A stretch of 64,000 bases of DNA, taken from contig CM097885.1 of assembly GCA_044892525.1 (NCBI GenBank), positions 21,826,001-21,890,000 on the forward strand. The letters run 5' to 3'. The notes beneath the pieces are model-generated. The model saw only the letters and a list, made by a program, of their open reading frames with translations, had not been told where the DNA came from and searched no databases. The stretch comes from Schmidtea polychroa (Eukaryota). Position numbers and translations under genes: made by a program. Positions 29,701 to 32,700 of the stretch are shown here, piece after piece. Each line of letters opens with the position of its first letter. Positions within the stretch are counted from its first letter, which is position 1.

Positions 29701-32700
29701 TTTGCCTTTGACTACTTTAAGTATAATATTGAGTAAATCATCGACAACAAAATTTGGGAATGATTGCAATATATTCATTCTTTTCATACTCGGGGCCTTT
29801 AACAATGCATTAAAAAATGGAAAACTGCGATGATTTTTAACTACTTTTTTACTGGTTTTACGGGTTTTACGGGTTTTACGTTTAGGTTTAGGATTTTTCG
29901 AAATAAGATTCATTGCAGAGAAATTTTCAGTTACAAGTTTTTTAGATGGTGTATAACTAGTTGTTGGTGGAACCTTTGGAACTTTAATAGTCTTTCTAAT
30001 ACCTTTTCTTAATTTCCTAATATTTTTCACCCTTGCTTTTAGAAACATTATTATTCATAGAGGTTTTCAACTTTGTTTATAAACCATGGCACCTTTTGGG
30101 TTGAAAATATCTGTTTTTACACGTAAATCATCGGGACATTGTTGTGTGAAATCAAGAAATATATATCCATGAGGTATTTTTGTAGCATCTTGAAATGCAC
30201 TGATAAGAAAATTACGATTATTAGGGTATGCTTGACGTGCAAGAAAATCAATCACTGTTGCATCTCTAGGATTCTTGAAAATAACTAAATATTGTACATT
30301 TAAATTACGTGTTCGATGTGCCCCACCTTGATGAAATAGGTTTTGTGTTATGAAAATAACTGTTACACCGACATGTCTGCTGATCTTCGTAAATAAATTA
30401 TTAAAATCTTTTTCTTTATTAGCTTCTTGATACAAATCATCGATAATAATGACATCACCTTTCTTTAATCGGCTGGACCAGTTTTTATCGAATCCCTTTA
30501 CTATTTTCATGTTTTTTAATTTACAGAAACTTGATTGAGTTAATCCATGTTCTTCATCAGCACCCCTATGCCAATAAATCCTGTTGAATTTTGATTTGAA
30601 TAAATTTGATTTTAGTAATTTACAAACAAATAATGTTTTTCCACTACCACTCGGACCAACGATTTGGTATACTGCATCATTTCTTAATTCCATTTCAAAA
30701 TTTTATATATGTGTATTTGTTTATATTCGATGATTTAATGAACTCGTGCTCAATGTGTATATAAAGACTAATTTTCATAAATGATTTAATAATGTTAGCA
30801 AATATAAATTATCGAGGAAATTTTGATGTATCGAATATGAGGTTCCCACCAGGGAAACCCCAGCAAATTATCGATAGAAGCGGGAAATATCCGATAATAT
30901 TTTTCAAGACTGGTAAGTGTCGAATCATGGGATGTAAGAAACCTTTGAATATTAATAAATTAAAATATCGAATAAAAAATATTATAATCCAATCAATTAC
31001 CGTTACTATGGATATAGGATATACTATCAATCTATATAACATGTCGAAAAAATGTGATTGTATGTTTGAACCGGAATTGTTTCCGGCACTAAGACTATTA
31101 AAATATAACCCTATATGTGTCAACGTGTTTGCTAGTGGAAAGGTTGTCATGCTAGGGTTGAGAAATTTGGAGTATAGAGAATTTGTTGACAATGTTCGAA
31201 ATGAGATAATTTCATTGGTTGATTTCTAATTGGTTAGTTTCTTATTGGTTATTGATTGATTTAAACAAACGGTTTTTGTTTAGAATTCATTTTTTCAACA
31301 TCATGTACAAATTACCAAGCTCTGCAACCCTCATGAAGGATATTGACGATTCCGGTAAATTTAAAATTTTTATTTTCACATTATTTACTATTTATTATTT
31401 TAGAAAAATATTTAAAAGTTATGATCGATAGGATGAAATATTATTATCCTCAAATTATTGAAATTATCAAGGATCGAGAAGCAGAAATAATTCCGGACCT
31501 CATTTTCTACGCTACTCAAATTAGAATAATGGAGGTATTTCACCAGTTCCTGTGGGATATTAAGATCAACAGAACCATCAAACAAATGGAGCCAGAGTAC
31601 CAGTGCATCATGGGATGCTCATGTTGTGCCGATCGATATCGGCGATATGTCGAATGGGAGTTAGTGAAAACTCTGAGAAGGTTTCACTACTCCCGGATTG
31701 TTGATTTGGGTTACGAATAAATGTATTTCGTGTTTGAATTGTGTTTTTTCTTTATATTTAAAATAGTAATAATATAAATAGTAATAATAATAGAAATAGT
31801 AATAATAATAATAATAATAATAATAATAATAATAATAATAATAATAATAATAATAATAGAAATAGTAATAATAGTAATAATAATAAAACATTAATAAAAC
31901 ATTAATAGAACATAAATGCAGCATTAATGCAAATGACCTGCAATTTTAAACAAAGACATGCTATCATCTGATTGGTTGATAGACATGACTCAAAGGTATA
32001 AAAACCCTGTAACATTTAAATTTATTCATTATTCACGATGACCAAGAAAATTTCAAGCACCGAAAAACCTAAAGAAATGGTACAACCAGTTCAAATGTTC
32101 CACAACTACAAAATGTATTTTTTGAAAGAAGAAATCAATATGAAATTGGTTGCACCAGTCAAGCTAATTCCAACTAAATTCGAATTCTTATCCGGCACGC
32201 TTTCAATGATTGATGTCAAAACTATTGATGATGTTTTTAAACGGATAGATTCGAATCTATCGTGTAATCAACATGCATGGTTCAACAATAGATATGCAAG
32301 ATTTTATGATGCTTTTGATGAAATCAGTTTCAAAGAAAATGAAAATTGGTATATAACTATAGCAATCCAGGGATATAAAGTTGATAATAATGATGTATAT
32401 TCTCCTATTTGGAAAATTATGTCTGCTAGACTTTCACAAATATTTTAATGTTATATTTAATAAATGTATTAGTCAGATTTGTTTTTCTCTTTATTAATTG
32501 CAACATAAATGCAAATGACATGCAAATTTAACAAAGAAAATATATAAACAAAATTATAATATAGTTTTAAAGTGATGAAAATGACTGCAGAAAAAGGTTA
32601 ACATGATTAATTAATTACCGAATTATTTATTATTTAGAATTTTTAATCAACTTTTTGTTGGAAAAGTTAGCAGAAATATCTGGTGTGAAAATTGAGGACA

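Follow-up and report, generated by a model that had tools for sequence, protein, structure and literature searches.

Homologs of the TATA-binding protein (TBP) are encoded by giant DNA viruses (Nucleocytoviricota), such as Heterosigma akashiwo virus 01, the mimivirids, and the asfarvirus with its B263R protein; many giant DNA viruses also bring their own RNA polymerase. In the beta- and gammaherpesviruses, as the sections of the two papers drawn on here describe, a viral TBP mimic (vTBP; KSHV ORF24, EBV BcRF1, and HCMV UL87) serves late genes through host Pol II, with TATT-type late promoters and direct recruitment of the Pol II CTD within a six-protein complex (PMC7498053, PMC13345323). Closer to Polintons, the available text of Starrett et al. 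(2021) presents the MELD viruses as midsize linear double-stranded DNA viruses with an adintovirus-like PolB, and the legend to Fig. 5, which accompanies maps of MELD/adintovirus-like linear viruses, includes the label "TBP" (PMC8502044). The 2020 preprint of the same work, in its accessible part, names TBP as one of the "homologs of host proteins." In the portions of the 2021 paper available to us, TBP is a legend label only, with no structure, conservation, promoter, or mechanism attached (PMC8502044), and our search for literature on TBP or promoters in Polintons, Mavericks, or adintoviruses found only this one label.

In this study, we have analyzed a 64,000-nucleotide stretch of Schmidtea polychroa DNA (the window), which contains a complete Polinton of 19,949 bp (16492 to 36440) and, within it, the gene for a 145-aa TBP homolog, here called TBPL. 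Long terminal inverted repeats (TIRs), 5'-AG...CT-3' ends, and a 6-bp target-site duplication are the hallmarks of Polintons, and this element has all of them. The TIR arms, of about 2 kb, are 96 to 100% complementary, and Tandem Repeats Finder returned a period of 212 and 6.9 copies for the left TIR. In window coordinates, the features of the element are as follows.

16486 to 16491: left copy of the target-site duplication, ATTATC, 6 bp, directly flanking the element end
16492 to 18609: left TIR, starting with 5'-AG, with a C-tract and about seven copies of the 212-bp unit
18968 to 23107, minus strand: family B DNA polymerase, presumed to be protein primed, 1378 aa
25374 to 25841, minus strand: adenovirus-type cysteine protease (Pfam Peptidase_C5, E = 3.2e-6)
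25786 to 27009, minus strand: conserved virion-block protein, 406 aa, 27 to 59% identity, syntenic in related loci
27367 to 28422, minus strand: conserved virion-block protein, 350 aa, with syntenic homologs
28368 to 29540, minus strand: retroviral-type (rve) integrase with a chromodomain and an in-frame poly-Ile microsatellite
29521 to 30048, minus strand: basic virion-block protein, 174 aa, between ATPase and integrase, kept in related loci
30067 to 30693, minus strand: A32/FtsK-type genome-packaging ATPase (Pox_A32, E = 3.7e-7)
30792 to 31229, plus strand: TBPL, 145-aa minimal TBP homolog (Pfam, PDB, model, and conservation)
32038 to 32448, plus strand: 136-aa protein, a conserved TBPL neighbor in relatives (21 loci)
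34110 to 36440: right TIR, about eight copies of the 212-bp unit, ending with CT-3'
36441 to 36446: right copy of the target-site duplication, ATTATC, 6 bp, the same hexamer as on the left flank

The polymerase was recognized from motifs read directly in its translation (ExoI YADFEA, motif A DINNLYG, and motif C GDTDS); it gave no polymerase match in Pfam, the PDB sequences, or NCBIfam, and its homologs are linked to a TBPL-family gene in metagenome loci. The integrase has strong homologs in related loci and matched rve (E = 1.4e-5), Chromo (E = 1.4e-3), and rve_3, all below the Pfam cutoffs. The protease and the packaging ATPase are identified by Pfam, the latter being 63 to 76% identical in the closer related loci, and the capsid candidates are conserved and syntenic: the 406-aa protein, which had no family match in Pfam or NCBIfam, is from its position a candidate major capsid protein, and the 350-aa protein may be a minor capsid or penton protein. 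NCBIfam gave no match for any element protein other than TBPL. Together, the TIRs, the target-site duplication, the polymerase motifs, and the protease, ATPase, and integrase matches bear out the earlier note on this DNA, which had placed TBPL within a Polinton.

The model of the 136-aa neighbor (pLDDT, 91.1) had no Foldseek match at an E value of ≤1e-3, and its VIA-align scores were borderline (Z of 7.3 for ASFV CP312R, 7.1 for DUF2815, 7.0 for the Enc34 SSB, and 6.9 for T7 gp2.5); it is probably a T7 gp2.5-like OB-fold single-stranded DNA (ssDNA)-binding protein. It was considered as a transcription partner of TBPL and rejected because the model resembles ssDNA-binding proteins of the T7 gp2.5 type.

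The TBPL open reading frame (ORF), from both the ORF listing and the sequence, is intact from ATG to TAA, and the motifs quoted from it in the earlier note were found as written, with FFKTGK at residues 37 to 42, FEPELFPAL at residues 92 to 100, and VFASGKVV at residues 112 to 119. The TBP profile search proposed there and an AlphaFold model of TBPL both gave clear answers. Pfam PF00352 (TBP) matched TBPL in two stretches with an E value of 7.6e-14 (51.8 bits; cutoff, 22.9), all 35 matches among PDB sequences at an E value of ≤10 were TBPs or TBP fusions (best, 2z8u_A, 6.9e-10), the NCBIfam search returned archaeal TBPs, all at subthreshold scores, and the neighbors of TBPL in the protein atlas were the TBP family. 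The model (pLDDT, 94.6) retrieved TBP entries at all of Foldseek ranks 1 to 44 (best E value, 2.3e-8). Using VIA-align, it superimposed on complete TBP cores (yeast TBP residues 66 to 240) with a Z score of 12.4 and a root mean square deviation of 2.7 Å over 144 to 145 of its 145 residues; 38 TBP-containing entries scored a Z of ≥10.5, and the next fold scored 6.7. TBPL is a true TBP homolog, with a match far beyond chance.

In the model, the two tandem repeats form one saddle whose concave β-sheet is continuous, as the whole-core alignment indicates. Repeat 2 (residues 62 to 142) has the full canonical order S1-H1-S2-S3-S4-S5-H2, whereas repeat 1 (residues 1 to 48) consists of strands only. 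Four strands were assigned in the N-terminal half, with S2 unassigned, and five in the C-terminal half; helices were found only at residues 81 to 85 and 129 to 142, with none of four or more residues in residues 1 to 60, so that repeat 1 lacks H1 and H2 and the TBP pattern of two helices per repeat is broken. An internal profile alignment pairs a 13-residue stretch of each repeat. The Pfam stretches, PDB matches, AlphaFold model, and whole-saddle alignment thus agree on two TBP repeats of which the first is shortened, as had been claimed.

TBPL shares with cellular TBP, TRF1 to TRF3, and TBPL1 the whole-saddle fold, a canonical repeat 2, an identical E-P-E-L-F sequence, and the S4 Phe in both repeats. 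It differs from them in size (145 aa, compared with a cellular TBP core of about 180 aa), in having neither an N-terminal tail nor the repeat 1 helices, and in being encoded by a mobile element with at least 150 copies. None of the TBP-fold proteins that the structure searches returned at an E value of ≤1e-3 is as short. The best BFVD matches were the TBPs of giant viruses (E values of 9e-8 to 1e-3; 22 matches at ≤1e-3); like TBPL, these are virus-encoded TBP-fold proteins, but those at an E value of ≤1e-3 have 186 to 547 aa, two full repeats, and only 7 to 20% identity to TBPL.

Across 41 aligned family members (38 to 94% identity), F38, E93, P94, E95, F97, and F113 are invariant, and position 96 is Leu or Ile. 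Residues 93 to 96 reproduce the E-P-E-L stirrup that contacts TFIIB, and the E-P-E-L-F stretch corresponds to E144-E146-F148 of Arabidopsis thaliana TBP2. In the portion of the source used here, E144 and E146 are the main TFIIB contacts and F148 is an intercalating Phe (PMC10005294). Two intercalating Phe residues of TBPL, F97 and F113, were located by PDB alignment and a third, F38, by the internal profile alignment; by our mapping, TBPL would therefore keep three of the four found in TBP. Strand register suggests that the position of the repeat 1 stirrup Phe may be occupied by an invariant Pro23. The 41-member alignment, the model, and the structure alignment are thus in line with the earlier view that the TFIIB-contacting stirrup is preserved, along with most of the Phe residues that intercalate. 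The DNA-facing surface is otherwise remodeled: in the PDB alignment the S1' Asn and Val of TBP are replaced by S68 and T70. On the concave face, an invariant R44 and an invariant M46 take the places of the Val and Thr of TBP. By our mapping, the Asn, Thr, and Val minor-groove contacts of TBP are also replaced by M46, R44, N111, and L121. For TRF2, weakened DNA binding has been reported, according to the part of the paper used here (PMC10005294).

TBPL is not a one-off capture: it has many open copies, related clusters, and metagenome relatives. The host genome holds at least 150 copies, and none of the 150 scored has a stop codon, so that the sister copies scored show neither the absence nor the pseudogenization that the earlier note had named as grounds for doubt. 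Pairwise pN/pS was 0.16 in a set of 50 copies that yielded 24 distinct coding sequences, a sample biased by the scored copies being the best-scoring 150 of 4172 candidate matches. A second subfamily in the host genome has the same arrangement. Elsewhere, 108 related protein clusters were found at an E value of ≤1e-3, with 109 family representatives at ≤1e-10. Each of the 80 metagenome loci retained encodes a TBPL relative; 40 of them have one or more further Polinton genes, and among the loci of at least 5 kb, 14 of 16 carry Polinton core genes. Over these 80 loci and 108 clusters, conservation of the family extends to members of only 33% identity, with 18 invariant positions. Scanning of viral contigs with the TBPL alignment revealed one distant full-length viral TBP (L041; 25% identity) on a 44.7-kb IMG/VR contig; a BLAST alignment of TBPL with L041 was set aside because its register in the N-terminal half contradicts the conserved F-x-S/T-G-K motif. 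Viral contigs were also scanned with the ATPase protein and an ATPase alignment for Polintons lacking TBPL, as a control, and no relatives were found.

Some earlier claims about origin and position need revision. TBPL had been described as captured, which suggests a recent host origin, yet it is no closer to the host TBP and its paralogs (23 to 47% identity over short segments; E values of 5e-5 to 0.025, obtained with a very small database) than to archaeal TBPs. The statement that TBP is not a Polinton core gene fails for the present lineage, where the gene is conserved and syntenic. The head-to-head arrangement with the virion block is correct for the present copy, in which a 98-bp spacer separates TBPL from the ATPase gene, but it is not general: among the 28 metagenome loci holding both genes, the TBPL-family gene lies upstream of the ATPase gene on the same strand in 24 and is divergent in only 2. 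When the family profile was run against the host TBP exon, only TBPL repeat 2 was aligned, to host repeat 1, and this alignment was rejected. As to other factors encoded by the host, its canonical TFIIB gene contains an intron that divides it, and an intronless TFIIB paralog is also present; the top PF00382 match in the genome is BRF1-like by eye.

The upstream regions of the element carry two kinds of box, which in the present copy are placed as follows.

27045 to 27051, minus strand: YATAAAC box upstream of the 406-aa capsid-candidate gene, with 42 nt to the ATG
29592 to 29598, minus strand: YATAAAC box upstream of the integrase region, with a second at 29519 to 29525
30075 to 30081, minus strand: YATAAAC box upstream of the 174-aa gene, with 33 nt to the ATG
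30719 to 30725, minus strand: YATAAAC box (TATAAAC), 32 nt before the ATPase ATG, a proposed late core-promoter element
30758 to 30766, plus strand: canonical TATA box, TATATAAAG, 34 nt before the TBPL ATG

Counted in the sense orientation within 120 nt upstream of the ATG at nonredundant loci, YATAAAC preceded virion-module genes in 63 of 78 upstream regions, at about 35 nt from the ATG (range, about 32 to 50), and occurred in antisense in 1 of 78. Per gene, and with some start codons approximate and the integrase seeming to begin further downstream, the counts were 23/25 for the ATPase (never in antisense), 7/8 for the 174-aa protein, 10/14 for the integrase, 9/13 for the 350-aa protein, 10/11 for the 406-aa protein, and 4/7 for the protease. 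The comparison genes had the box in 3 of 78 regions (TBPL, 1/59; SSB-like, 2/15; polymerase, 0/4, with unreliable starts). TATAAAC was present in 76 of 313 nonredundant upstream regions, compared with 9.1 expected. The late-box forms are T/CATAAACA, the box flanks show no conservation, and 49 of 50 sister copies have the ATPase box of the present copy without any change. TBPL homologs have a canonical TATA upstream in 32 of 59 nonredundant regions, and in these host-type promoters TATAAA or TATATAA lies about 35 to 49 nt from the ATG and is often preceded by a CCAAT-like box. There are therefore two promoter classes, split by gene class; their link to the protein is a co-occurrence within one set of related elements that are not phylogenetically independent.

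TBPL is likely to serve the element as a functional transcription factor of the TBP fold. Our preferred reading goes further and is tentative, its chances being close to balanced: TBPL would be a functional transcription-initiation factor that reads the virion-module box, a viral TBP paralog for late promoters. That TBPL is a specific reader of YATAAAC is put forward with slightly more reserve. We infer DNA binding, TFIIB binding, the preference for YATAAAC, and early/late timing from the features described above. In such a scheme, TBPL would be transcribed from an ordinary host-type TATA promoter, and the genes for replication and accessory functions would probably have promoters of this type too. 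The concave sheet of TBPL would then bind the minor groove of TATA-like boxes, with F38, F97, and F113 intercalating, and the stirrup E93-P94-E95-L96-F97 would dock host TFIIB and so bring in Pol II. No RNA polymerase gene was seen in the element, unlike in many giant DNA viruses, and therefore host Pol II must be used; the redirection of Pol II to element promoters, as suggested in the earlier note, is plausible. The preferred target would be YATAAAC(A) at the TATA position of the ATPase, integrase, capsid-candidate, and protease genes, and through this preference the virion ("late") module would be switched on.

The repeat 1 half of TBP lies over the 3' part of the TATA box. The late box departs from TATAAAAG in its 3' part, where the repeat 1 half of TBPL would lie, and the remodeled repeat 1, with Pro23, R44, and M46 and without H1 and H2, may be the half that faces the changed region. 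With the repeat 1 helices, surfaces for host TBP regulators would also have been lost. A full two-stage program, in which host-type TATA promoters act early and TBPL then reads the virion-only YATAAACA and hands these genes to host TFIIB and Pol II, TBPL being possibly blind to host TBP control for want of the convex regulator surfaces, is more speculative again and somewhat doubtful. Other considerations weigh against the preferred reading: YATAAAC might be bound by host TBP, which accepts a wide range of TATA variants, and with one Phe lost and minor-groove contacts replaced, DNA binding could be weakened instead of retargeted.

The herpesvirus vTBPs would be the closest mechanistic analogy, since there too a TBP-like protein is paired with a variant −30 box on virion genes. 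Both components are present here, with binding between them only inferred. Structure matches of TBPL in BFVD were weak for U58 (E = 5e-3) and BcRF1 (E = 1.7e-2). These proteins have 1005 and 577 aa, whereas TBPL consists of the saddle alone, with the TFIIB stirrup retained, and Pfam and NCBIfam recognized no Pol II CTD-binding domain or vTBP partner protein among the element ORFs. The relationship is an analogy of mechanism, not membership.

Rather unlikely, although it draws on the same fold and stirrup evidence, is that TBPL is a general TBP substitute that works at both kinds of promoter or mainly at canonical TATA and increases Polinton transcription or insulates it, for instance when host TBP/TFIID is in short supply or under repression, with YATAAAC read by a different factor, perhaps a host protein of the forkhead type. 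Three of the four Phe residues are kept, as in TATA-binding TBPs, both box types lie about 32 to 49 nt before the ATG, so that one factor could serve both, and ATAAACA fits the forkhead consensus, RYAAAYA. However, the strict split of the box by gene class (63/78 versus 3/78) calls for a class-specific reader, the distance from box to ATG (only about 25 to 40 nt) has no space for a TATA box downstream of a forkhead site, and the DNA-facing residues of TBPL differ from those of TBP at family-conserved positions.

A decoy or repressor, which would titrate TFIIB or block host TATA boxes (shutoff) or silence the element's own promoters (latency), is improbable; in its TFIIB-decoy form the idea goes back to the earlier note. 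Retention of the TFIIB stirrup while the repeat 1 helices are lost, helices that in TBP carry contacts to other partners, would suit such a role, as would the small size and the missing Phe of a binding-only protein; but a decoy has no need of a conserved concave surface or of three conserved Phe residues that intercalate, and the position upstream of the late block (24/28 loci) and the class-specific box fit an activator better. Very improbable is a DNA-architectural role, in which TBPL bends or marks DNA for protein-primed replication or packaging, for example at the terminal repeats. TBP-like folds do occur in nontranscription proteins (rolling-circle Rep and glycosylase domains scored Z of 5 to 6), the constant neighbor in relatives is the probable ssDNA-binding protein, and the gene that follows is frequently that of the packaging ATPase; yet the exact retention of the TFIIB stirrup would be left unexplained, and the TIRs lack YATAAAC and have TATAWAW on the plus strand 0 times in the left arm and 8 times in the right. 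That TBPL is a functionless, decaying relic of a captured host TBP, as its shortening and the loss of two helices and one Phe might suggest, is scarcely credible and is already contradicted by the conservation data (all scored copies open, the low pN/pS, and the invariant positions across distant relatives) together with the very confident model.

In conclusion, what is new here is the YATAAAC box class on virion genes, set against the TATA of the TBPL gene, the prior art in the accessible literature being one figure-legend label (PMC8502044). The gene expression of Polintons/Mavericks and their exogenous relatives is essentially undescribed, and a TBP paralog with a class-specific box provides a concrete, testable model of temporal control in Polinton-type viruses. 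If true, it would mean that the strategy of serving late genes with a viral TBP, seen in herpesviruses, is also used by a much smaller virus, and it would give a virus-like transposon a self-encoded early-to-late transcription switch. As a natural minimal TBP saddle, TBPL could show what DNA bending and TFIIB docking require of TBP and in what way the specificity for a box can be rewired. Since the host genome carries at least 150 near-identical open copies, the product might also affect host transcription.

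The ORF at window positions 30792-31229 (+) runs from ATG to TAA and encodes 145 aa. We confirmed that this TATA-binding protein (TBP)-like ORF, here called TBPL, is real and contains every motif quoted in the earlier note: FEPELFPAL (residues 92-100), VFASGKVV (112-119), and FFKTGK (37-42). The proposed TBP homology was borne out by a Pfam match to PF00352 over two stretches of the ORF (E 7.6e-14; score 51.8 bits, cut-off 22.9 bits). All 35 sequences returned by phmmer from the PDB were TBPs or TBP fusions, led by Methanocaldococcus TBP (E 6.9e-10).

An AlphaFold2 model of TBPL, built from a 41-member family alignment, was well supported (mean pLDDT, 94.6; pTM, 0.82). 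It contains a complete TBP repeat at residues 62-142, with strands at 62-74, 90-92, 99-102, 109-113, and 117-123 and helices at 81-85 and 129-142; residues 1-48 form strands only (2-10, 25-28, 35-38, and 42-48), and no helix of at least 4 residues precedes residue 81. Foldseek ranked TBP entries of the PDB at positions 1 to 44 (best E 2.3e-8; query TM, 0.65-0.76). VIA-align superposed TBPL on complete TBP cores (e.g., yeast 66-240) over 144-145 of its 145 residues (Z 12.4, rmsd 2.7 Å), with a Z of at least 10.5 for 38 TBP-containing entries and 6.7 for the next fold. TBPL is therefore an entire saddle whose repeat 1, reduced from ~90 to ~58 residues, has lost both helices. A profile alignment of the two halves of the family pairs one 13-residue stretch with another. 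At an E of ≤1e-3, the listed targets of the structural matches are at least 169 (PDB) or at least 186 (BFVD) residues long.

Among the positions invariant in 41 aligned sequences (38-94% identical) are E93, P94, E95, F97, F113, and F38, together with P23, C43, R44, M46, and N111. The C-terminal stirrup of TBPs aligns with E93-P94-E95-L96-F97 in the PDB matches, and F97 and F113 are the Phe pair of the second repeat. According to an excerpt of PMC10005294, the stirrup holds four of the eight TFIIB-contacting TBP residues, the key contacts of Arabidopsis thaliana TBP2 being E146 and E144, and the intercalating pairs of TBP are Phe57/74 and Phe148/165. The profile alignment of the two halves makes F38 the S4 Phe of repeat 1; we infer from the strand register in the model that the fourth intercalating position is invariant Pro23. 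In the DNA-facing S1' "QN.V" motif, the PDB-match alignment has Asn and Val replaced by S68 and T70, and by our mapping the Val and Thr of TBP give way to R44 and M46, and its Leu and Thr to N111 and L121. The TFIIB-docking edge is thus retained exactly and the DNA-reading face remodelled, most strongly in repeat 1.

TBPL lies in a region bracketed by ~2-kb inverted repeats (96-100% complementary), in each of which a 212-bp unit is repeated 7-8 times. An outward walk placed the ends at 16492 and 36440 (19,949 bp), with termini 5'-AG...CT-3' and the hexamer ATTATC duplicated at both flanks. Long inverted repeats, AG...CT termini, a 6-bp duplication, and such a gene set are hallmarks of Polinton/Maverick elements, and the Polinton setting claimed earlier therefore stands, the element being complete by these hallmarks. 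Its genes are as follows.

Genes of the element (window coordinates)
30792-31229, plus strand: TBPL
32038-32448, plus strand: 136-aa protein, SSB-like
28368-29540, minus strand: rve integrase with chromodomain
minus strand: 1378-aa protein with family-B polymerase motifs
minus strand: adenovirus-type protease (Pfam E 3.2e-6)
minus strand: 406-aa and 350-aa proteins, conserved, with putative capsid roles
minus strand: 174-aa basic protein
minus strand: A32-type packaging ATPase

Several other features of the element were noted. The terminal-repeat arrays occupy 16679-18181 and 34521-36257, long C/G tracts lie ~50 bp from the termini, and the plus strand has eight TATAWAW words in the right arm (e.g., GTATAAATA in the 212-bp unit) and none in the left arm. 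In the integrase core (~28990-29060, minus strand), an in-frame ATT microsatellite encodes a run of ~22 Ile residues between "TDLG" and "LGKEF"; the run also occurs in a second subfamily (loci L152 and L153) and is thus not private to the window copy. Upstream of the integrase, a conserved "MG(A/N/I)(N/T)PS..." start (window 29290-29517, minus strand; related loci L046, L061, L063, L074, and L090) directly follows a YATAAAC box or lies within ~30 nt of it; in the window this start begins a 75-aa frame of its own, which may represent either a short upstream exon or a small protein that is possibly myristoylated. A basic, Gly-Gly-rich ORF of ~120 aa between the 350-aa and 406-aa genes (window 27006-27370, minus strand; L152:1977-2339, minus strand), with an upstream YATAAAC box, is conserved in L152 and L153 and may encode an adenovirus pVI-like core protein. 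A 21-bp tandem repeat (23.5 copies; 23658-24153) gives overlapping ORFs at 23676-24176 (+) and 23685-24149 (-), which are unlikely to be genes. Outside the element are ORFs of transposase, tubulin, and GIY-YIG types at 5996-7297 (-), 8513-9304 (-), and 42329-43282 (+): a DDE transposase of the pogo/Tc5 type that carries a Brinker-type DNA-binding domain (DDE_1 E 1.6e-29), a tubulin C-terminal domain (E 4.9e-32), and a GIY-YIG ORF, possibly Penelope-like, with a weak reverse-transcriptase match. At the window end there is a perfect inverted repeat of 709 nt (60251-60959/63292-64000).

Relatives of TBPL are widespread: a word-indexed protein search gave 108 clusters at an E of ≤1e-3, all of 96-232 aa and all with PF00352; an exhaustive search gave 714 representatives at that threshold and 109 at ≤1e-10; and a metagenome scan gave 173 coding relatives, from which 80 loci were kept. 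With the window's Polinton proteins as tblastn queries, at least one other Polinton gene was found in 40/80 loci, in 28/37 of those that reach 3 kb, and in 14/16 of those that reach 5 kb. TBPL directly follows the protease in 9 of the 11 loci with both genes. Contrary to the earlier view that it is not a Polinton core gene, TBPL is conserved within this Polinton lineage and is no accident of a single copy. The head-to-head arrangement with the virion block was correct for the window, where TBPL diverges from the ATPase across a 98-bp spacer, and is not general: among 28 loci with TBPL and ATPase, TBPL is directly upstream on the same strand in 24 and divergent in 2.

The 136-aa protein almost always adjoins TBPL in related loci, in either orientation (homologs in L042-L067). 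Its model (pLDDT, 91.1) resembles T7 gp2.5-type viral ssDNA-binding proteins at borderline Z (ASFV CP312R, 7.3; DUF2815, 7.1; Enc34 SSB, 7.0; gp2.5, 6.9), and it is probably the replication SSB of the element. By eye, an intron-like ...AAG|GTA... (or ...CAG|GTA...), an AT-rich stretch, and TTTAG|ATG precede the homologs in L046, L050, L051, L052, L055, L063, and L067, which suggests that the gene is spliced in some relatives and fits nuclear Pol II expression.

Within the 781-Mb assembly of the window (G000), the best 150 of 4172 candidate TBPL matches were 94-100% identical in protein and all stop-free, with no sign of pseudogenization in these copies. Fifty copies (30 loci from the genome search and 20 lower-ranked places) comprised 24 distinct coding sequences, encoding 18 different proteins; in this sample, which is biased to well-conserved copies, mean pairwise pS was 0.0575 and pN 0.0091 (ratio, 0.16). 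A second subfamily (L152, C1:149209728-149219727; L153, C1:121222986-121232985) has ATPase, 174-aa, integrase, and 406-aa proteins 92-97% identical to those of the window and a 350-aa protein ~52-56% identical. Its 170-aa TBPL, with an acidic-hydrophobic C-terminal tail, keeps the head-to-head position and is only 53% identical; because the late block is mostly so much closer, this points to modular exchange of the regulatory/accessory end between elements. The accessory ORFs of this subfamily also differ. In a PF00352 genome scan, host TBP and its paralogs stood out (124 to 64 bits); with these TBPL shares only 23-47% identity, limited to short segments, and the "captured" TBP of the earlier note therefore shows no sign of recent capture from this host. 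Outside the window's Polinton, the genome has an intronless, full-length 301-aa TFIIB paralog with a zinc ribbon and two cyclin repeats (L150:4582-5487 and L151:4572-5477, both minus strand), in at least 13 copies in two clusters near C1:23.85-24.19 Mb and C3:38.2-39.1 Mb; its 1.47-kb unit is 94% identical between chromosomes.

Two promoter classes were apparent. In the window, TATAAA- or TATATAA-type boxes lie 34-41 nt before the ATG of TBPL, the 136-aa gene, and two small accessory ORFs, with CCAAT-like ATTGG words farther upstream by eye; the virion-block genes carry TATAAACAA-type words instead. A k-mer screen of the 90 nt upstream of every ORF reaching 100 aa, in the window and the 80 loci (313 non-redundant regions) found TATAAAC in 76 regions (expected, 9.1) and ATAAACA in 89 (expected, 11.4). 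Counted on the sense strand within 120 nt of the start in non-redundant regions, YATAAAC precedes the packaging ATPase (23/25), 174-aa (7/8), integrase (10/14), 350-aa (9/13), 406-aa (10/11), and protease (4/7) genes, or 63/78 for the virion block (antisense, 1/78); the counts were 1/59 for TBPL, 2/15 for the 136-aa gene, and 0/4 for the polymerase, whose starts are poorly placed. Canonical TATA words occur in 32/59 regions upstream of TBPL homologs, typically at -35 to -49. The YATAAAC box lies mostly 32-50 nt before the ATG, often within the coding sequence of the preceding gene, and its flanks lack conservation; the ATPase-side box in the window spacer (30719-30725, minus strand) is identical in 49/50 sister copies. 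Since the ~25-40 nt between box and ATG are too short to hold another TATA box, YATAAAC takes the TATA position of virion-block genes. Beside the homology, fold, conservation, and synteny of TBPL that we have demonstrated, this promoter dichotomy is a new observation.

Pfam and NCBIfam searches of the element proteins recognised no RNA polymerase, and several relatives have GT...AG intron signatures; it is therefore natural to assume that nuclear Pol II expresses the element. We postulate that TBPL would be produced from a host-type promoter, bind TATA-like DNA through its concave sheet, and recruit host TFIIB via its conserved stirrup, its preferred target being the YATAAAC(A) box upstream of virion-module genes; its binding to DNA and to TFIIB, its preference for this box, and the timing are all inferred. 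In the TBP-DNA crystal literature, repeat 1 of TBP lies over the 3' half of the box. It is in the 3' half that the late box departs from TATAAAAG, and repeat 1 is the half rebuilt in TBPL.

Other explanations may be envisioned. TBPL may be a general TBP substitute, the late box being read by a host factor, a reading favoured by ATAAACA, which matches the forkhead consensus. The link between protein and box is a co-occurrence within one related set of elements, which counts against recognition of the late box by TBPL, and viral-contig scans with the ATPase protein and the ATPase alignment found no relatives to serve as TBPL-less Polinton controls. Also against such recognition, one lost Phe and several changed minor-groove contacts could mean weaker DNA binding, as an excerpt of PMC10005294 reports for TRF2. 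TBPL may instead be a TFIIB decoy or repressor, or may serve replication or packaging as a DNA-architectural protein. That TBPL may be a dead relic is contradicted by its conservation.

TBP homologs are known from giant viruses, which supply the best BFVD matches to TBPL, and from herpesviruses. For Polintons and related viruses, full-text searches yielded only the label "TBP" in the Fig. 5 legend of Starrett et al. 2021 (PMC8502044); in an excerpt of the preprint, TBP is grouped with "homologs of host proteins." Within the literature searched, a minimal TBP whose first repeat lacks helices, the conservation of this protein across a Polinton lineage, and a gene-class-specific box are without counterpart. 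For TBPL as the reader of the late box, the closest working precedent is, by analogy, the viral TBP mimic that beta- and gammaherpesviruses use for late genes, which excerpts of PMC7498053 and PMC13345323 describe as acting on variant late promoters.
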